From contig JAZDNO010000014.1 of NCBI GenBank assembly GCA_043799545.1, positions 1 through 64,000 of the forward strand: a DNA stretch of 64,000 nt. The letters run 5' to 3'. The DNA comes from Methanobacteriota archaeon. Lineage in GTDB: Archaea > Thermoplasmatota > Thermoplasmata > SG8-5 > DAIRED01. Positions 9,703-45,464 of the stretch are shown piece after piece. The position numbers were made by a program, and so were the translations under genes. Positions within the stretch are counted from its first letter, which is position 1. Every line of letters starts with the position of its first letter. The notes beneath the pieces are model-generated. The model saw only the letters and a list, made by a program, of their open reading frames with translations. It had not been told where the DNA came from and did not search any database.

Positions 9703-11901
9703 TTACTGCTGCGGGTATTGCGGGGGCTGCTGGGGCGGGTACTGCTCCTGCGGCGGCGGGTACTGGCCCGGCTGCGGGGGTTGCTGGTACGGCTGCTGAC
9801 CGTATGGCTGCTGCCCCTGGTACGGCGCCGGGTGCTGGTTGAACTTCGCCGCCTTCTTCTTCTTCATCATGAGCATGAGGACGACGAGCACGACGACGAC
9901 CGCGACGGCCACCAGCGCGAGAACCACCATGAGCCACGGGAACGACGAGCCCGAAGGCATCGAGACGCCCTCGTCTTCCAGGAACGCGCTCGGGTCGTCG
10001 TTGAATGATTCGGCGTCAGCCTTGTCCACGGGCTCGAGCGTCATGTCCATCGTGCTGGTGTCAGGCAGGCTGCCGACGAATGGTATTTCCGTGTCCGTCA
10101 TGTCCCCCACGGGGCCGAAGTACGGCTCGTAGGTCGTGTACATGCCTTTCGCGGGGTCGTAGGTGGCCGTCGTTTCGAATCCGGTCGCGCGGGTTCCGCC
10201 TATGCCCGACAGGTCGACTTCATCGACGTACGTTACGAACCCCCAGCCGCCGTTGAGCAGCGGCGGGGCCGTCGCCTGGTTCGTGCTGGCGACGTAGTTC
10301 AAAGCGAAGGTGTTCGTGAATTCCCCGCTGGCCGCCTCGTCGACGTGAACTGGATCCGGGAGTGTGATATCCTCGCCCATCATCTGGTCGAAGTATCCCG
10401 TCGCACTCATGTCCACTACCATGTCGAACTTCACGTTTCCGTCGTAGCCCACGGTGCAGGTGCGTTCGACTGAGATGTCCTCGTCCTTCGCGGGCATGAA
10501 CGGTATCCCCGGGGCCGATTCCAGGGTGAGCTGGAGGTCCATGTCGGCGGTCGCGCTGGCGTCCACCGAGCCGGTGATGGTCACGCCCTCGGCTTTGATG
10601 TTTGCGTCCAAGTTCGCGGAGAGGTCTAGGCTCGCCGCGATGTTCAGCGTCATCTTCTCGCCCGCCCAGTATGCCTTGCCGCCTGAGTTCTCGTAGTATC
10701 CGAGCCACAGGCTGCCTTCGTATAGCAGGTCTGCCGTAACGTCCGCATTGCCGCTTATCGTGCCATCCATGGTGGCGCCATCGAGGTCGACGTTGTCGGC
10801 CGTCATCTTGCCGTCCACAGCCAGCGCGGCGTATATCCTGCAGCTGTAATCGAACCTGTAGTTGCCCGCTTCCTCTCCGGCGTACTCGACAAGAATGTAC
10901 TGGCCGATGCCGCCGGAACCGCTGATAGACGCCTTCACTCCGTCGGGCATGTCCTCGGTCATCTGCGCCTTCATCTCGTCGATGAAGCCTGCCAGGTCGA
11001 GGTAGGCGCCGCTCGCGGCGTAGTCCCCGACCGTCCACGGAACCGTGTCTGGCGTCGTCTTCTCGAAGCCCGTCGAGCCGCCGCCAGAGGTTCCTGTCGT
11101 GATGGTTAGCGTGTAGGTGCCGCCGCCCGAGATAGAGTCCACGACGACGTAGTACCTCCCGCTGATTGGCGAGGTGAAGGAGATCGTCTCGTCGGAAGAA
11201 CTCGGGTTTTCCGATGATAAAATCGGCTCATTTATATTTAATGAGTTGAAGAGGAACATGTCGAAGTTGCTGCCGGCAGGAACGTCCAGGGTGATCGTCG
11301 TCGCCACGCTGCTTGTCAGGGTCAAATCGTACACCATGCTGTCTCCCGCGAAGAGATAATAGGTATCCGTGCCCGGGACGCTTATGTATTCCGTGACCGC
11401 GAAGTCGTACGACCCGGCCCAGACATCTCCACCCACCTCGTCTATTTCGAACGGCAGGGAGACCATGTACTGGGCCTCGGCCATGACGTCGAACTTCTGC
11501 GCGGAGCTAAGATAGCTCTGAGGCACGGTGATTGTAAGGGTGTCGCCGGAAACCGTGTAGCCGTCGTTGTGCTGGTTGCCGTCGTAGGTCAGGACGCCGA
11601 TGTTCCCGGACATTATGAAAGTAATGGCGTATAATCCGCCATACTGGGAGTCTCCGGCCCATATGTAATACTCGTATTCGTTGCCGCTGTTGATGTTTCC
11701 GTCGACCTTCAGCGAAATTATTATATTGCTGGACTGGACGGTCGACCTCAAGGATATTATGTCGACGTCGCGCTGTATACCTGCGTCGATTCCGTCCGTG
11801 TAAGTTATCTCGAAGTTCGTCGCTCTCGCGTACTGGCCTATCGCGCCCAGCAGCGATATCGCTAACATTGCCCCTATTGCTAATCCCATCCATCTGCGCA
11901 T
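9703..11901 (-). CDS. Membrane-anchored surface protein with a PPC-like domain and a cytoplasmic P/Q/Y-rich tail
   Basis: N-terminal signal-like segment. PPC-like segment (LDVPAGSNFDMFLF...SGRYYVVVDSISGGGTYTL). C-terminal TM followed by KKKK and PYQGQQPYGQQPYQQPPQPGQYPPPQ. Confidence 0.75.
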   Translation of the reverse strand: MRRWMGLAIGAMLAISLLGAIGQYARATNFEITYTDGIDAGIQRDVDIISLRSTVQSSNIIISLKVDGNINSGNEYEYYIWAGDSQYGGLYAITFIMSGNIGVLTYDGNQHNDGYTVSGDTLTITVPQSYLSSAQKFDVMAEAQYMVSLPFEIDEVGGDVWAGSYDFAVTEYISVPGTDTYYLFAGDSMVYDLTLTSSVATTITLDVPAGSNFDMFLFNSLNINEPILSSENPSSSDETISFTSPISGRYYVVVDSISGGGTYTLTITTGTSGGGSTGFEKTTPDTVPWTVGDYAASGAYLDLAGFIDEMKAQMTEDMPDGVKASISGSGGIGQYILVEYAGEEAGNYRFDYSCRIYAALAVDGKMTADNVDLDGATMDGTISGNADVTADLLYEGSLWLGYYENSGGKAYWAGEKMTLNIAASLDLSANLDANIKAEGVTITGSVDASATADMDLQLTLESAPGIPFMPAKDEDISVERTCTVGYDGNVKFDMVVDMSATGYFDQMMGEDITLPDPVHVDEAASGEFTNTFALNYVASTNQATAPPLLNGGWGFVTYVDEVDLSGIGGTRATGFETTATYDPAKGMYTTYEPYFGPVGDMTDTEIPFVGSLPDTSTMDMTLEPVDKADAESFNDDPSAFLEDEGVSMPSGSSFPWLMVVLALVAVAVVVVLVVLMLMMKKKKAAKFNQHPAPYQGQQPYGQQPYQQPPQPGQYPPPQEQYPPQQPPQYPQQ

Positions 11902-37580: not shown

Positions 37581-39812
37581 TTGGAGCTATCCGAGAACGC
37601 GGTCGCCGTGCTGGAGAAGAGGTACCTGATAAAGGACAAGAAGGGGAAGACCATCGAGACGCCGGACGGCATGTTCAGGCGCGTGGCCGAGAACATAGCC
37701 TCGGCCGAGCTAAAGCACGGCAAGTCCAAGCAGGAAGTCAAGCAGATAGAGCGCGAATTCTACGACTTCATGAAGAGCCTGGAGTTCATGCCAAACTCCC
37801 CGACCCTTATGAACGCGGGGCGCGACATGCAGCAGCTCTCGGCGTGCTTCGTCCTGCCAATAGAGGACTCGATGGAATCCATCTTCACCTCGCTGAAGAA
37901 CGCGGCGATGATTCACAAGTCGGGCGGTGGAACTGGCTTCGCCTTCTCGCGCATACGCCCCAAGGCCGACCCCGTACTCTCAACGATGGGCGTGAGCAGC
38001 GGTCCGATATCGTTCATGAAGGTCTACAACGCCGCCACGGAGGCCATCAAACAGGGGGGCACGCGCCGCGGCGCGAACATGGGAATCCTCCGCGTGGACC
38101 ACCCGGACATCATGGACTTCATCAAGTGCAAGGAGGACACGACCAAGCTGACGAACTTCAACATCTCCGTCGCCCTGACGGAGGAGTACATGAAGGCCGT
38201 AATCGGGGACGAGGAGTACGAGCTTCTCAACCCGCGCACGAAGGACGTCGCCGGCAAGCTGAAGGCGAGGGACGTCTTCGACACGATATCCGAGATGGCG
38301 TGGAGGACCGGAGAGCCGGGAATCGTCTTCCTTGACAGGATAAACAGGGACAACCCGACCCCGGCTATCGGGGAGATCGAGAGCACGAATCCGTGCGGGG
38401 AGCAGCCCCTTCTGCCATACGAATCCTGCAACCTGGGCTCAATCAACCTGGCGCTCATGGTCAAGGGCGGGGACGTGAACTGGGAGCGCCTCAAGGCTGT
38501 CACGCGCACGGCGGTGCGCTTCCTGGACGACGTCATCGACGTCAACAACTACCCCTTGCCGGAGATAGGCGAGATGTCGCTTGGCAACAGAAAAATTGGC
38601 TTGGGAGTCATGGGATGGGCCGACATGCTGGTGCAGCTTGGCATACAATACGATTCGCCGAAGGCGCTCAAGCTGGCCGAGCGCGTAATGAAGTTCGTTC
38701 AGGACGAGGGCTGGAAGATGAGCGGGGAGCTGGCAGAGGAGAAAGGGGCGTTCCCCAACTTCGCCAAGTCCAAGTTCGCCAAAGGGCGCAAGGTCCGCAA
38801 CGCCACTGTGACGACCATCGCCCCGACGGGCACGATTTCCATGATCGTGGACTGCTCCAGCGGGGTCGAGCCGAACTTCTCAGTAGCCTACCTCAAGCGC
38901 GTGATGGACGGGCGCGAGCTGCCGTATGCGAACCGCTACTTCGAGGAGCTCGTGAAGCGCAGGGGCATACACACCGCCGAGCTGATGGAGAAGGTCGCCA
39001 AGGCCGGCCACATCCAGGAGCTGGAGGAGATACCCGAGGACATCAGGAAGCTATTCCTCACGGCGCATGACATCTCCCCCGAGGGCCACATCATGATGCA
39101 GGCGGCGTTCCAGAAGTTCACCGACAACGCCGTTTCGAAGACCGTGAACATGAGCAACGATGCGAAGGTCGCCGACGTTGCCAAGGTGTTCAAGCTCGCG
39201 TACGAGACTGGATGCAAGGGCGTCACGGTCTACAGGGACGGCAGCAGGGAAGCCCAGGTATTGTCTTCCGGCACGGCCAAAGACCAGGCTAAGGCCGTGC
39301 AGACAAGGCTGAGCCTAGGCGAAATCGACGTTGACGAGAACGGAAAGCTCAAGCCCCGAGCCCGGCCGCTGGTGACCACAGGCTCGACCGTGCGCATGAC
39401 CACTGGCTGCGGTTACCTTTACGTGACGATAAACGAGGACGAGCGCGGCCTGTTCGAGATATTCGCGCGGATGGGCAAGACTGGCGGCTGCGCCGCGAGC
39501 CAGACCGAGGCGATAGGACGATTGATATCGCTCTCTCTGCGCTCCGGCATAGACCCGGTCGCCGTCGTGAAGCAGCTCAAGGGGATTCGCTGCCCGGTGC
39601 CGGCGCCGCTGTCGAAGGAGCGCTGCCTCTCGTGCCCTGACGCGGTCGGCCAGGCATTCGAGATATTCATGAAGTCCAGGGGCGAGAAAATCGTCTTCGA
39701 CGTCAAGCCCTCGGACCGAGGGCTGCGTCCGGAGTGCCCGGAGTGCGGGGCGCCGATAGAGTTCGCGGAGGGCTGCGCGGTCTGCCCGGCGTGCGGGTAC
39801 TCGAAGTGCTGA
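37581..39812 (+). CDS. nrdJ: Class II (B12-dependent) ribonucleotide reductase with C-terminal TSCPD and Zn-ribbon domains
   Basis: NSPTLMNAG, QLSACF, GGGTG, TNPCGEQPL, SCNLGSIN, TIAPTGT, YRDGSR. Tail MTTGCGYLYV...SCPDAV...CPECG. Confidence 0.96.
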   Translation: MELSENAVAVLEKRYLIKDKKGKTIETPDGMFRRVAENIASAELKHGKSKQEVKQIEREFYDFMKSLEFMPNSPTLMNAGRDMQQLSACFVLPIEDSMESIFTSLKNAAMIHKSGGGTGFAFSRIRPKADPVLSTMGVSSGPISFMKVYNAATEAIKQGGTRRGANMGILRVDHPDIMDFIKCKEDTTKLTNFNISVALTEEYMKAVIGDEEYELLNPRTKDVAGKLKARDVFDTISEMAWRTGEPGIVFLDRINRDNPTPAIGEIESTNPCGEQPLLPYESCNLGSINLALMVKGGDVNWERLKAVTRTAVRFLDDVIDVNNYPLPEIGEMSLGNRKIGLGVMGWADMLVQLGIQYDSPKALKLAERVMKFVQDEGWKMSGELAEEKGAFPNFAKSKFAKGRKVRNATVTTIAPTGTISMIVDCSSGVEPNFSVAYLKRVMDGRELPYANRYFEELVKRRGIHTAELMEKVAKAGHIQELEEIPEDIRKLFLTAHDISPEGHIMMQAAFQKFTDNAVSKTVNMSNDAKVADVAKVFKLAYETGCKGVTVYRDGSREAQVLSSGTAKDQAKAVQTRLSLGEIDVDENGKLKPRARPLVTTGSTVRMTTGCGYLYVTINEDERGLFEIFARMGKTGGCAASQTEAIGRLISLSLRSGIDPVAVVKQLKGIRCPVPAPLSKERCLSCPDAVGQAFEIFMKSRGEKIVFDVKPSDRGLRPECPECGAPIEFAEGCAVCPACGYSKC

Positions 39813-39813
39813 T

Positions 39814-41073
39814 TCAAAGCCTCTTCATCGCCTCGCGCGCCTGGCCCGCCCGCTGGGCGTTGCCTATGCCGTCGAAAATCATCGCCGCACTGAGGAGGTA
39901 CTCGTTCGCCTGCGCTTTCTTGTCGGCCTCGGCGAGCATCAGACCGCATTCGTAGCTCGCGTCGGCCAGCCTGTAGGGCATGTTCAGCTTCTCGCGGAGC
40001 GAGATAGTCTTCTCGAAGTACGCCAGCGACTCGTCGAAGCTGCCCTTGAGCCTGTAGATTATCGCGTAGGAGAGGTAGGCGCCTGACATGCCGAGGCTGT
40101 CCCCGAGCTTTTGGAATATGGCGAGCGACCTGTCACAGTACTTGACCGCCTTCTTGAAATCCTTCAGCCGCGCATAATCCTCGCCGGCGTTGAAGAGCGC
40201 CCAGCCCTCCATAACGACGTGGCCTATCTTCGAGGCAAGCGCTATGCATTTCTCGTAGTACTCGACCGATTCTTCGTATTTTTCCTGCCTCGCGAAGTTG
40301 ACGCCGATGTTGTTGTAGAGGGTTGCCATCGCCTGGTAGTCTTTGAGTTCCGTCAGCAGCGTGAGGCTCTTGTTGGCGCATTCCAGGCCGCGCTCGTACT
40401 TGCCGCGCTCGTCGTAGACGTTCGCCATCGCCATGTACACCTGCGCCGACCCCTCCTTGTAGTTGTGTTTCTCGGCAAGCCAGAGGGCCTGCTCGAGCAC
40501 GCCGATGGCGCGCTGGTACTCCCCCTTGCGCCAGTAGAGGTTCCCCAGCAATCTGTTCGCGTCCACCAGGAGTGGCGGCTCGCCGATATTCTCCGCCTTT
40601 CCGACCGCATCCTTGATGAGCGGCAACGCCTCGTCGTAATTCCCAGACCGGAGGTGAATTCCGCCAAGGCCGCTCTGAAGTTTAACCGCCATGCGGAGGT
40701 CGCCGATGTGGTTGGCGATTTTCAAGGCCTTCGAATAGTTCTCCACGGCGTCCCTCCACAACCCAGCGTGCCGGCTGGCCTCGCCGAGCTCGAAGAGCGC
40801 AGACATCCTCTTCCCCGCCTCCACCTTCTCGGAGGTCTGGGACTTCATCGAATGGATTGCCGTCAGTTTTTTGTAGACGGATTTGGCCTTGTCCTGGCCG
40901 AAGAACGTCATCGCCTTCGAGAGGGCGCTCGCCAGGGCTGGCAGGTCGGCGGGTCTGAGTTCGTCCGGGTCGAGCTTGAGGTCCTTACACTGCTTCTTGA
41001 CGATGAAGAACCCCATCTCCCCGAGTTCCGAGAGCATTATCTTATTGATTTCCTGGCTGGTTTCAGATGGCAA
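39814..41073 (-). CDS. Tetratricopeptide-repeat protein with a small N-terminal helical domain
   Basis: Multiple TPRs (LGNLYWRKGEYQRAI, YNNIGVNF..KYEESVEYYEK). TTG start at 41073 with a GGAGG RBS. Confidence 0.88.
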   Translation of the reverse strand: MPSETSQEINKIMLSELGEMGFFIVKKQCKDLKLDPDELRPADLPALASALSKAMTFFGQDKAKSVYKKLTAIHSMKSQTSEKVEAGKRMSALFELGEASRHAGLWRDAVENYSKALKIANHIGDLRMAVKLQSGLGGIHLRSGNYDEALPLIKDAVGKAENIGEPPLLVDANRLLGNLYWRKGEYQRAIGVLEQALWLAEKHNYKEGSAQVYMAMANVYDERGKYERGLECANKSLTLLTELKDYQAMATLYNNIGVNFARQEKYEESVEYYEKCIALASKIGHVVMEGWALFNAGEDYARLKDFKKAVKYCDRSLAIFQKLGDSLGMSGAYLSYAIIYRLKGSFDESLAYFEKTISLREKLNMPYRLADASYECGLMLAEADKKAQANEYLLSAAMIFDGIGNAQRAGQAREAMKRL

Positions 41074-41307
41074 GGCGCTCCTCCGTTGCGTTTGGAGCCG
41101 ATATGCGGATGGAACAGCTGCCCCCTCAAATCCCTTTCGGCGGACTCGTGGGAACACATGGTCTCCATGCGTGAGCGAAAATGCGAAATTGCCATAACTG
41201 GAATCGCATCAGGCCCGCAATGGCATCATCATTCCCGGCAAATCACCGCAACCATTATATAGTACCGTCTGCTCCTCGGTTAGCCTTAACCCGAGATGCT
41301 AGGCACT

Positions 41308-41475
41308 GGGCCCGTAGCTCAGCTAGGTAGGAGGGGCCGCACGCGACCTCTCTCTAGTAAGAGCGTCTGGCTTTTAGCCGCCGGGGACAAGCTCCCATGC
41401 GGGTAAGACACCAGAATGTCCGGGGTTCGAATGACGCTGCCTCCGGGCACCGCTCCGAAATTCCCCGCGGGCCCG
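41308..41475 (+). tRNA. tRNA-Lys (anticodon UUU) with three introns at 20/21, 37/38 and 59/60
   Basis: Removing 41329-41359, 41377-41409 and 41432-41461 gives GGGCCCGTAGCTCAGCTAGGTAGAGCGTCTGGCTTTTAACCAGAATGTCCGGGGTTCGAATCCCCGCGGGCCCG. All four stems pair, the T-loop reads TTCGAAT and position 73 is G. A TATA-like ATTATATA lies near 41254. Confidence 0.93.
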
Positions 41476-41586
41476 CAGCCAATGATTGCATGGGCGGCAA
41501 TCGCGGAGTGGGTGACAAGATGGCAAAAAACCCAGAAAACCAACAATCAGGATTCTCAGGCAATACTGCAAAGAGGAGCTGAAAGC

Positions 41587-41844
41587 ATGGACGACTTCAA
41601 CGTGCTAGAGCACGATCTAGTTCCTTCCCACATCCTTCTCTCGGAGAAGGAGGTCGCGGAAGTGCTTCAGAAGTACGGGATAGGGAAGGACCAGCTTCCC
41701 AAGATTCGGCGCACGGACCCTTGCGTGAGGGCCATAGAGGACGCCATGAACAAGGACATCGAGGAGGGCTCGATGATAAAGATAGTGCGCAACAGCCCTG
41801 TGGCAGGAATGATTGTAAGCTACCGGGTGGTCGTCAAGGGATAG
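41587..41844 (+). CDS. rpoH: RNA polymerase subunit H (Rpo5)
   Basis: FNVLEHDLVPSH, QLPKIRRTDP, IKIVRNSPVAG...YRVV. AGGAG RBS; the ORF-track call from 41416 runs through the tRNA. Confidence 0.96.
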   Translation: MDDFNVLEHDLVPSHILLSEKEVAEVLQKYGIGKDQLPKIRRTDPCVRAIEDAMNKDIEEGSMIKIVRNSPVAGMIVSYRVVVKG

Positions 41845-41852
41845 GTGTGTAA

Positions 41853-44800
41853 ATGCGAGAGATTGTCGAGGGATTCTTCAGGGAGCGCAGCATCGTCAAC
41901 CACCACATAGCATCGTTCAACGACTTTCTGCCAACGATTGAGAATATAAACAGCAGGATGCAGCTAATCGTGGACAACGTCAGGATATCCAAGAACGAGG
42001 GGCTGCGCGGTGTCATACGGCTGGACGAGGACCGCACGGATGGAAAGATTGTTGATATACGGATTGGGCGCAAGCGCAACCCGGCAACGGGCGAGGTCGC
42101 GCCGCAGACCAAGGCCACAATCATCGTCGGAGCGCCGACGGTCAAGGAGGCCAACGGTGCGACGCACACGCTCACGCCGATGGAGGCCAGGCTCAGGAAC
42201 GTGACCTACCAGGCCCCTATAAATCTGGAATGCACGATAATCGAGGACGGTTTCGAGAACGAGCCGGAGATGGTCCACATCGGCGACCTGCCGATTATGG
42301 TCCGCTCGAGGAAGTGCAACCTCCACGAGAACAACATCGATGCGATGTTCGAGAAGCTGCCCGAGGAGCAGGTGGTCAAGCTGGGCCAGGACGACAAGCT
42401 GGCGAAGCTCGGCGAGGACCCGTGCGACCCCGGCGGATACTTCATCGTGGGCGGCACGGAGCGCGTGCTCATCTCGCTGGAGGACCTGGCGCCGAACAGG
42501 GTCATGGTCGAATTCAACGAGCGCTACGGCACGAAGATGGAGGTCGCCAAGGTATTCTCGCAGCGCGAGGGGTACAGGGCGCTTACGCTCATGGAGAAGA
42601 AGCGCGACGGACTTCTAATGGTCTCAATAGCGGCCGCAACTGGCCAGATACCGCTGATAATCCTGATGCGCGCCCTCGGGATGGAGAGCGATGAGGACAT
42701 CTACAACGCCATAGTCGCCGATGCCGCGATGGCGAACCTCGTTTATGCGAACATCGAGGAGTGCAAGAGCATCAAGAACTACCCGCCGGACGGAATAAAC
42801 AACACCGAGCAGGCGATGCTCTTCCTGGAGAAGAAGTTCGCCACCGGCCAGGCCAAAGAATACAGGGAGAAGAAGGTCGAATCGATAATCGATAAGTCCC
42901 TGCTTCCTCACCTGGGCGATTCAAAGGAGGACCGCCTGAAGAAGGCCATCTTCCTCGGGAGGATAGCAAAGAACGTCATAGAGCTCAGCCTCGGGAAGCG
43001 CAGCGAGGACGACAAGGACCACTACGCCAACAAGCGCCTGAAGCTCTCGGGCGACCTGATGGAGGACCTTTTCCGCGTCTCGTTCACGAACCTCATGAAG
43101 GACCTGAAGTACCAGCTTGAGCGCGGCTACGCGAAGAAGAAAGGCGTCAACATCAAGTCGGCGATACGCCCTGACCTCTTGAGCCAGCGCATACTCCACG
43201 CCCTTTCGACCGGAAACTGGGTCGGCGGGCGCACCGGAGTCTCGCAGCTTCTGGACCGCACCTCGAACGTCTCCTCGATGAGCCACCTCAGGAGAGTCAC
43301 CTCGCCTTTGACACGCAGCCAGCCTCACTTCGAGGCGCGCGACCTACACCCGACGCAGTGGGGAAGGCTTTGCCCCAACGAAACGCCTGAGGGCCAGAAC
43401 TGCGGGCTCATGAAGAACTGCGCCCTGCTGGTCGACGTGAGCGAGCGCTCCCACGAGGCGGAGGTCAAGCACATCCTGAACGACCTGGGTCTGAAGGAGG
43501 TCAAGACGCAGCAGATCGCCGGAACGCGCGTGTACGTGAACGGGGACCTGGTCGGAGTGCACGACCACCCCGTCGACCTGGCCGAGGAGATGAGGCAGAG
43601 GCGCAGGGCCGGCATGATATCCAACGAAATCAACGTGCGCTACGACGCGAAGATGAACGATATAATAATCAACTGCGACGAAGGACGCCTCAGGCGTCCG
43701 CTCATGGTCGTCCGCAATGCAAGGCTGGCGCTCACGCGCAAGCACGTGGACAGCCTGGTCGTCGGGAAGGTCAGGGTGGCGGACCTTGTCAAGGAAGGGC
43801 TAATAGAATGGATAGACGCGGAGGAGGAGGAGGACTCGTTCATCGCCGTCAACGCGTTCGAGACTCCGGGCGCGTGTCCGGGATGCAAGAAGCCCCTCTC
43901 GCCCACGGACGTGGCGTGGATGAACATGGGCTCGGCCGACGACGAGGTCTCCCTGAAATGCAAGTTCTGCGACAAGGAGTTTTCAACCCCCAAGCTGCTG
44001 AAGAAGGAGCACACGCACATGGAGATAGACCCCCTGCTCATACTCGGCGTCGCCTCGGGAATGGTTCCATACCCGGAGCACAACTCGTCGCCCCGCATCA
44101 CGATGGGCTCCGCGATGGCAAAGCAGTCTCTAGGTGTGAGCGACTCGAACTACCGCATCAGGCCGGACACGCGCTCCCACCTGCTCCACTACCCGCAGCG
44201 CCCGCTGACGCAGACGAAGATAATGGATTTCGTGCATTACCAGCGCAGGCCCGCTGGCCAGAACTTCGTAGTGGGCGTAATCTCGTACCACGGCTACAAC
44301 ATGGAGGATGCCCTGATAATGAACAAGTCGTCCATAGAAAGAGGGTTGGGCCGCAGCACATTCTTCAGAACTTACAGGGCGGAGGAGCGCCGGTACCCCG
44401 GTGGTCAGGAGGACCACTTCGAAATTCCCTCGCCCGACGTCAGGGGGGCGCGCGCAGACCTGTCGTACAACAACCTGAGCGAGGACGGGCTCATAAGCCC
44501 GGAGGTGCATGTGAAGGGCAGCGACGTTCTCATAGGCAAGACCTCGCCGCCGCGCTTCCTCGAGGAGGACATAGATTTCCTGACGCCCCAAAAGAGGCGG
44601 GAAACATCGGTCACAGTGAGGCCCGGGGAGGAAGGCTGGGTCGACAGCGTGATGCTCACCGAGACAGAGAACGGCTCGCGGCTGGTCAAAGTCAAGGTCC
44701 GCGACCCGCGCATACCCGAACTCGGCGACAAGTTCGCATCGAGACACGGCCAGAAGGGCGTCATCGGACTCATAGAGAAGCAGGAGAACATGCCATTTAC

Positions 44801-45464
44801 CGCCGACGGCATGACCCCGGACCTGGTCATCAACCCGCACGCCATTCCGAGCCGCATGACCGTGGCGCACGTTCTCGAGATGATTGGCGGCAAGGTCGGC
44901 TCGATGGAGGGTCGCTTCATAGACGGCACGCCGTTCAGCGGGGAGCGGGAGGAGTCGCTCCGCCAGGGGCTGGAGGACGCCGGTCTGAAGCACAACGGCA
45001 GAGAAGTCCTGTACGACGGCAAGACTGGCAAGAAGATAAAGGCCGACATCTTCGTTGGCGTCATCTACTACCAGAAGCTGCACCACATGGTCGCAGGGAA
45101 GATGCACGTCCGTTCGCGCGGTCCGGTCCAGATTCTTACGAGGCAGCCGACCGAGGGCCGTTCGAGGCAGGGAGGCCTGAGGTTCGGGGAGATGGAGCGC
45201 GACTGTCTCATCGGGCACGGCGCGGCGATGGTCATCAAGGACCGATTGCTGGACGAGTCCGATGGAACAACGCAGTTCGTGTGCGGCAACTCGGAATGCG
45301 GGCACATCGCATTCATGGACCGCCGCGGCACGGTCAGGTGCCCGGTCTGCGGCAACAACTCCAACGTCCACCCTGTCCAGACATCGTACGCGTTCAAGCT
45401 GCTGATGGACGAGCTTCTGTCGCTCGGAGTGGCCATGCGCCTGCAACTGGAGGAATTGAAATGA
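41853..45464 (+). CDS. rpoB: RNA polymerase subunit B (Rpo2, unsplit)
   Basis: [59 protein letters not shown]. Confidence 0.98.

Follow-up and report, generated by a model that had tools for sequence, protein, structure and literature searches.

A tRNA-Lys(UUU) gene with three BHB introns and a splicing endonuclease without specificity loops in a Thermoplasmata genome

The interrupted tRNA-Lys(UUU) gene and its surroundings

The window, i.e. the whole stretch of 64,000 nucleotides that was analyzed (contig C27), belongs to assembly G000, a Thermoplasmata MAG of 2.06 Mb in 31 contigs with a GC content of 58% and a completeness of 94%. When the N-terminal part of its RpoB was compared with species-representative genomes, the best 80 relatives were without exception Thermoplasmata, Methanomassiliicoccales or 'Thermoplasmatota' MAGs, the best of them sharing 79% identity. 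Together with the unsplit rpoB gene, this bears out the affiliation with the Thermoplasmatota that had been assumed in the earlier note. The following features make up the locus:

41254 to 41261, plus strand: A/T-rich ATTATATA, read from the sequence as a candidate TATA box of archaeal type, some 47 nt ahead of the first tRNA nucleotide
41308 to 41475, plus strand: tRNA-Lys(UUU) gene, 168 nt, four exons and three introns, CCA absent from the gene
41308 to 41328, plus strand: exon 1, tRNA positions 1-20 (acceptor 5' strand, U8, D-stem 5' strand, D-loop through U20), 21 nt
41329 to 41359, plus strand: intron 1 at site 20/21 in the D-loop, 31 nt
41360 to 41376, plus strand: exon 2, positions 21-37 (D-stem 3' strand, anticodon stem 5' strand, CUUUUA), 17 nt
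41377 to 41409, plus strand: intron 2 at the canonical 37/38 site, 33 nt
41410 to 41431, plus strand: exon 3, positions 38-59 (anticodon stem 3' strand, variable loop, T-stem 5' strand, UUCGAA), 22 nt
41432 to 41461, plus strand: intron 3 at site 59/60 in the T-loop, 30 nt
41462 to 41475, plus strand: exon 4, positions 60-73 (U60, T-stem 3' strand, acceptor 3' strand, discriminator G), 14 nt
41416 to 41844, plus strand: longest open reading frame for rpoH (Rpb5 C-terminal domain; Pfam PF01191, E 5.5e-26), downstream of tRNA-Lys
41853 to 45464, plus strand: rpoB, unsplit, 1203 aa, the anchor for homologous loci and for the tree

The true start of rpoH is probably the ATG near 41588. The order tRNA-Lys, rpoH, rpoB is kept in relatives, intron-bearing and intron-less alike. 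Further upstream, a ribonucleotide reductase large subunit with a TSCPD domain at its C-terminus is encoded at 37581-39812 (plus strand), followed on the opposite strand by the gene for a TPR-repeat protein of 447 aa at 39814-41157 (minus strand). ARAGORN reports another tRNA in the window, a tRNA-Ser(gct) at 9766-9841 (plus strand). It is probably a false positive, since none of the thresholds used brought support from RF00005 and the genome has its proper Ser(GCU) at C10:20350.

Removal of the three insertions of 31, 33 and 30 nt, whose lengths the earlier note had given exactly, like the coordinates of the gene, leaves a product of 74 nt (21+17+22+14) that ARAGORN recognizes as a perfect tRNA-Lys(ttt) with acceptor, D, anticodon and T stems of 7/4/5/5 bp. 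U8, U33, a UUCGAAU T-loop and the discriminator G are all in place, and with 47.2 bits (E 4e-13) against a profile built from the genome's own tRNAs the product scores inside the range of genuine tRNAs. The unspliced gene, on the other hand, elicits no ARAGORN call, be it with intron mode (-i) on or off, and no Rfam match at the gathering threshold, nor one to RF00005 even at E values up to 10, so that the suggestion that standard tRNA finders may miss it is correct for both tools. The 168-nt precursor has an MFE of -82 kcal/mol (z = -3.87) and folds as a cloverleaf with three arms lengthened by the introns, the anticodon arm of the MFE fold adopting a register that differs from the BHB register. 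In a genome-wide BHB-plus-cloverleaf scan the gene is the top multi-intron match; this scanner yields many false multi-intron parses, mostly known tRNAs extended upstream, and its output required re-scoring with the tRNA profile. The rank in the scan, the z-score and the recurrence of the architecture in more than 70 other genomes (see below) together argue that it did not arise by chance.

For the BHB test, a topology was scored in which each bulge lies 3' of its H strand and cleavage takes place after the second bulge nucleotide. All three inserted segments pass, the T-loop intron with an essentially canonical motif and the other two with relaxed ones, and the details described for them earlier are reproduced. 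The D-loop intron features an H helix CUAG/CUAG with 4/4 pairs, a 3-nt 5' bulge GU|A, a 3' site UA|A and an h' stem of 7 bp. Its outer helix, the D-stem, is displaced by the unpaired A14 and G15, which face the 3' bulge within a 2x3 internal loop, resulting in a relaxed, HBh'-like motif. Of the three equivalent registers possible for this intron, only that at 20/21 provides a paired H, and the registers are fixed or nearly so at all three sites. In the T-loop intron, H consists of UUCG/CGAA (4/4 pairs) with bulges AA|U and AU|U and an inner hairpin h', and the 5-bp T-stem serves as outer helix h and is stacked directly on H; in many relatives, one additional nucleotide remains unpaired in this motif. 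The 37/38 intron uses the anticodon stem as h and has an H helix CUUU/UAAG with 3/4 pairs, relaxed on the 5' side, while relatives carrying an intron at this site have GAAG/AAAG with 4/4 pairs. The locus is a genuine three-intron tRNA gene with two non-canonical sites (20/21 and 59/60), as had been put forward from the sequence of the window.

Conservation, history and copy number

Homologous loci were fetched from the best 80 relatives among the species-representative genomes with RpoB as anchor. An interrupted tRNA-Lys gene is located 350-550 nt upstream of rpoB in 74 of these 80 loci, and no uninterrupted copy occurs among the 74. The other six comprise two contig ends on which the interrupted 3' part is still present, two loci cut before the gene, one that is N-masked and one, L055 from 'Ca. 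Sysuiplasma', without any tRNA at this position. Counting the two truncated cases, the interrupted gene is thus found in 76 of 77 informative loci. Seventy loci could be parsed cleanly: the D-loop intron (27-41 nt) is present in all of them, the T-loop intron (22-119 nt) in 66 and the 37/38 intron (26-52 nt) in 27. The upper limit for the T-loop is set by locus L007 (2001-2136), where tRNA-Lys carries an intron of 119 nt, four times the usual length and offering room for a small RNA.

Every one of the 70 D introns and 66 T introns that could be parsed has an H helix of 4/4 pairs; 59 distinct D and 47 distinct T intron sequences are represented. The intron ends are fixed, with [A/U]GGA...UCC-CUAG-AA for D and ...CG[A/G]A-A[A/G/U/C] for T, and the exons are nearly invariant across the relatives, whereas the intron stems vary by compensatory substitution. 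When RNAalifold was applied to the D arm region only (33 homologs), the BHB motif emerged de novo and six pairs with double changes were seen, located in h'. The T arm region only (35 homologs) likewise gave the BHB de novo, with T-stem and H forming a continuous helix, a 3-nt bulge and seven pairs with double changes, all five h' pairs being compensatory. For the 37/38 introns the consensus was misregistered in a gappy alignment, because intron lengths vary between 26 and 52 nt. In a control in which each 5' arm was paired with the 3' arm of another sequence, the mean h' length of the real introns was above all 1000 shuffles for all three introns. This test is inflated by the relatedness of the sequences, and we therefore place weight on the compensatory pairs.

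The exact pattern of the D-loop-interrupted gene was found in 51 of the 401 genomes that had been drawn from across the phylum, and the reversed control gave 0 hits. Its distribution follows families: it is present in f8 (6/6), f9 (5/5) and f26 (22/24), the latter belonging to another class, and absent from f2 (0/48), f5 (0/26), f15 (0/36) and f23 (0/53). One representative each of five pattern-negative families (G002, G055, G073, G013 and G037) contains an uninterrupted Lys(UUU). In the first four of these, the gene is situated in the same tRNA-Lys, rpoH, rpoB order as the interrupted ones, and in G037 the downstream RpoB match is partial. The uninterrupted orthologs share identical D-arm and anticodon-arm sequences over the junctions AGGU|AGAGC, UUUUA|ACCAG and UUCGAA|UCCC. 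Exon 1 is identical to them in positions 8-20, and its acceptor strand differs at a few paired positions. With the same sequence and the same synteny, these orthologs verify each of the three splice junctions.

On an RpoB tree the intron states are clustered, with 12 changes as compared to 33.8 with shuffled labels. The tree shows one large D+T clade that includes the Methanomassiliicoccaceae, three groups with D, anticodon-loop and T introns (D+A+T), and one D+A clade, which has lost the T intron; the nearest relative, L004, is without the 37/38 intron. The tree stems from a quick search, is unrooted and places the intron-less rows on long branches, so that it permits no precise tally of gains and losses. 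The D and T introns are old and have come down by vertical inheritance in much of the phylum, in several families and classes, and the 37/38 intron is confined to some clades; the overall picture is one of occasional loss or gain and no recent burst.

Only two lysine tRNAs were detected in G000, Lys(CUU) at C1:131871 and the interrupted Lys(UUU). The intron-less Lys(UUU) elsewhere that the earlier note had named as a possible counter-argument was not found in this assembly, of which the missing 6% could hold one. It was not found in the closed, single-contig genomes of the relatives G172 and G305 either: an intron-less Lys(UUU) query matched Lys(CUU) and Met(CAU) alone over its full length; besides these it hit the exons of the interrupted gene, and no further Lys(UUU) turned up. 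A CUU anticodon cannot read AAA by standard wobble rules, from which it follows that the interrupted gene must yield a working tRNA. It is probably the only tRNA of the genome for AAA codons.

The BHB-plus-cloverleaf scanner found no second multi-intron tRNA gene in G000. Canonical introns occur in Met/Ile2(CAU), Tyr, Trp, Ser(GGA) and Ser(UGA), and insertions in the D-loop were noted in two further cases. tRNA-Arg(CCG) at C30:75687-75791 (minus strand) contains one non-canonical D-loop intron of 31 nt after nucleotide 17, with an H helix of 4/4 pairs and an h' of 6 bp, and Rfam detects it with no more than 20 bits. An initiator-like tRNA-Met (AGCGGGG...CAU) at C24:15642-15763 (minus strand) is 122 nt long, with a D-loop insertion of about 46 nt. 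Its D-loop reads AGCUAGG, as in tRNA-Lys, and there is no single clean BHB parse; its introns may be nested. Ala(CGC), Arg(GCG), Arg(UCG) and Ser(CGA) were not found by the scanner in the 94%-complete genome and may be hidden, dispensable or encoded in the missing 6%. A search for these isoacceptors by exon homology gave tandem 5' fragments only. Upstream of tRNA-Arg(CCU) (C5:40380-40760, minus strand) and of tRNA-Ser(UGA) (C15:50200-50580, plus strand) there are, in each case, two more exact copies of the first 19-24 nt of the respective tRNA, about 100 nt apart and, at the tRNA-Ser(UGA) locus, each preceded by an A/T-rich promoter-like box. Each copy leads into a structured, GC-rich segment of about 50 nt, behind which come the D-stem 3' and anticodon-stem 5' strands, without T-arm or acceptor 3' strand. 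They might represent relics, half-genes or small-RNA genes.

The splicing endonuclease and comparable systems

A PF01974 profile search of the genome matched a single open reading frame:

L001:1474-2568 (contig C1 of G000): EndA, 364 aa, two PF01974 and two PF02778 domains

This EndA consists of two N+C domain repeats, and no second endonuclease-like gene was found in the genome. A gene for a TFIIB-like transcription factor B (L001:482-1414, plus strand), as read from the translated open reading frame, is arranged tail to tail with it. The catalytic Tyr, His and Lys reside in the C-terminal repeat, where they align with the Y/H/K of the M. jannaschii enzyme; in the N-terminal repeat Tyr is replaced. 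Over its whole length, the catalytic repeat is colinear with the M. jannaschii subunit, itself loop-less, and the 10-residue CSL insert of the A. pernix alpha subunit is absent. Among solved structures, the best match is the beta-alpha fusion of M. kandleri (5X89, E 1e-40), followed by the alpha'2 enzyme of A. fulgidus, while T. acidophilum EndA and 4FZ2 match in the catalytic domain only. By its sequence, the enzyme would be classified as an ordinary two-unit alpha'2-type EndA without CSL/L1, L2 or L3 loops that is predicted to form a dimer. The RtcB ligase is also encoded by the host (601 bits).

The earlier note had expected an unusual EndA for this lineage. This expectation is contradicted not only by the single two-unit alpha'2 protein just described, but also by its similarity to the EndA of intron-less relatives. 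We compared the enzymes from five intron-bearing and five intron-less relatives and saw mostly two-unit proteins (the match in G037 covers the catalytic domain only) and no link between the form of EndA and the presence of introns. None of the intron-bearing G172, G121, G036 and G019 has an insert at the CSL site. The long form is encoded by G002 and G013, both of them intron-less, and the EndAs of G019 and G008, which do bear introns, are diverged forms.

Multi-intron BHB tRNA genes as such are well known, and the case of the Methanomassiliicoccales is partly catalogued, without comment. The tRNAscan-SE 2.0 census covers 217 archaeal genomes; its 16 three-intron genes belong without exception to the Thermoproteales and none to the Euryarchaeota, and for three Methanomassiliicoccales genomes it counts six introns at non-canonical sites and a single gene with two introns (PMC8450103, Table S7). 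The possibility that such genes had already been listed for this lineage, raised in the earlier note, thus applies to the non-canonical introns and to a two-intron gene but not to a three-intron gene. The two-intron gene is plausibly the tRNA-Lys gene with D and T introns. The census entry concerns hosts of the same archaeal class and provides counts only, without gene, position, conservation or the question of the endonuclease (PMC8450103). We found no paper on tRNA introns in Methanomassiliicoccales and none describing a three-intron tRNA-Lys. Reviews do not have the Thermoplasmata among the lineages listed with multiple tRNA introns, the genome paper by Borrel (2014) mentions neither a missing tRNA-Lys nor tRNA introns, and a 2026 preprint on Asgard introns does not cover the Thermoplasmatota.

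Besides the census entry, three previously described systems come closest. The three-intron tRNAs of the Thermoproteales (Sugahara et al., 2008; PMC8450103) resemble the present gene in having up to three BHB introns and non-canonical D and T sites and in escaping ordinary tRNA finders. Their EndA is an (alpha-beta)2 enzyme with a CSL loop, in contrast to the loop-less alpha'2 enzyme found here, and many of their tRNAs are affected by introns that show transposition, whereas we observe one three-intron gene, two other tRNAs with D-loop insertions and no paralogs. The pre-tRNA-Glu(UUC) of M. kandleri (Kaneta et al., 2018; PMC5829648) is likewise euryarchaeal and carries a D-loop HBh' (20b/21) and a 37/38 intron in the presence of an EndA without specificity loop. 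However, it is a different tRNA from a single species without T-loop intron, as opposed to conservation across a phylum, and alpha and beta are separate in M. kandleri but united in one polypeptide here. The epsilon2 EndA of ARMAN-2 (Fujishima, 2011, PMC3239211; Hirata, 2012, PMC3488258) is also of the single-polypeptide homodimeric type and belongs to a euryarchaeon-like host with multi-intron tRNAs; it is built from three units and has an ASL/L2 loop, in contrast to two units and no such insert in our case.

Proposed splicing pathway and its significance

We consider it very likely that 41308-41475 is a functional tRNA-Lys(UUU) gene, probably the sole one, the three BHB introns of which (20/21, 37/38 and 59/60) are spliced as proposed. 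The precursor would fold as a cloverleaf in which each of the three arms is extended by an intron hairpin, and the single alpha'2-type EndA would cut after the second nucleotide of each 3-nt bulge. RtcB would then ligate the four exons, and the ends of the tRNA would be finished by RNase P, tRNase Z and the CCA-adding enzyme. We infer the occurrence of splicing, any order of cleavage and the sufficiency of EndA alone from gene structure and gene content. Most likely, the introns persist because they are spliced adequately and not by virtue of a function of their own.

An EndA devoid of specificity loops counts as a narrow enzyme by current criteria (PMC5829648, PMC6379350), and the mismatch between such an enzyme and the rule connecting loops with specificity is the main point of interest of the present case. 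Loop-less alpha'2 EndAs of the Thermoplasmata may be able to remove relaxed, non-canonically placed introns in vivo, such as the D-loop HBh' intron and, in the present genome, the anticodon motif with 3/4 pairs, but we advance this tentatively. It is also possible, if rather doubtful, that the gene is spliced and that a plain alpha'2 EndA is insufficient for the relaxed D-loop and 37/38 motifs, in which case an extra determinant would be required. Candidates would be a cofactor, an obligatory splicing order that remodels the substrate, the body of the mature tRNA as a recognition element, or a residue outside the loops. In vitro, A. fulgidus alpha'2 did not clearly cleave a D-loop HBh' intron (20b/21) and the loop-less M. 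kandleri fusion showed trace cleavage only (PMC5829648), and the catalytic unit of the G000 enzyme has no L1/L2/L3 insert. One candidate residue stands directly behind the conserved YYG, where the CSL would be inserted; it is Lys or Arg in G000, G172, G121 and G036 versus Asn, Ser and Thr in M. jannaschii, A. fulgidus and M. kandleri, respectively. The same Lys is, however, present in intron-less G002 and G013, meaning that this residue does not track introns. A second endonuclease-like gene was not found in the genome, and at least the T-loop motif comes close to the canonical form and should be cut without a special enzyme.

The earlier note had further proposed independent intron gain or transposition in this lineage. 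Recent acquisition by BHB introns transposing from one tRNA gene to another, a scenario put forward for the Thermoproteales, could be supported by the other D-loop insertions of the genome, i.e. those in tRNA-Arg(CCG) and in the initiator-like tRNA-Met with its shared AGCUAGG. We nevertheless regard it as unlikely. A blastn-short search of this genome with the three introns returned self matches and short chance matches only, and no similarity was found among the three introns; the absence of paralogs fits old inherited introns. D and T introns are found at the same sites and with the same consensus ends in many other families and in other classes, and the intron states track the RpoB tree. 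It is highly improbable that the gene is a decaying pseudogene and AAA is read by another tRNA, because the blindness of ARAGORN and Rfam to the unspliced gene and the mismatch in the 37/38 motif of this copy are outweighed by exons that hardly vary, by compensatory intron stems, by the use of the same three sites in more than 70 genomes and by the status as sole Lys(UUU) in two closed genomes next to a Lys(CUU) unable to serve AAA.

A functional, three-intron tRNA-Lys(UUU) bears on annotation, evolution and enzymology. Owing to the failure of the finders, the genomes of a large clade, including the methanogen Methanomassiliicoccus from gut and soil, seem to be without a tRNA for AAA codons. 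One and the same gene, either free of introns or carrying two or three of them while its context is otherwise identical, constitutes a clean natural series for the study of intron loss and gain. As regards enzymology, the field ties multiple and non-canonical introns to EndAs equipped with loops and deems the alpha'2 type strict, whereas here a loop-less alpha'2 enzyme coexists with a conserved and seemingly indispensable gene containing two or three introns. If such enzymes indeed remove these introns, the rule that a specific loop goes along with disrupted tRNA genes would fail for a whole phylum, and specificity would have to come from another determinant, be it a residue at the position of the loop, the body of the tRNA as a recognition element or splicing in a set order.
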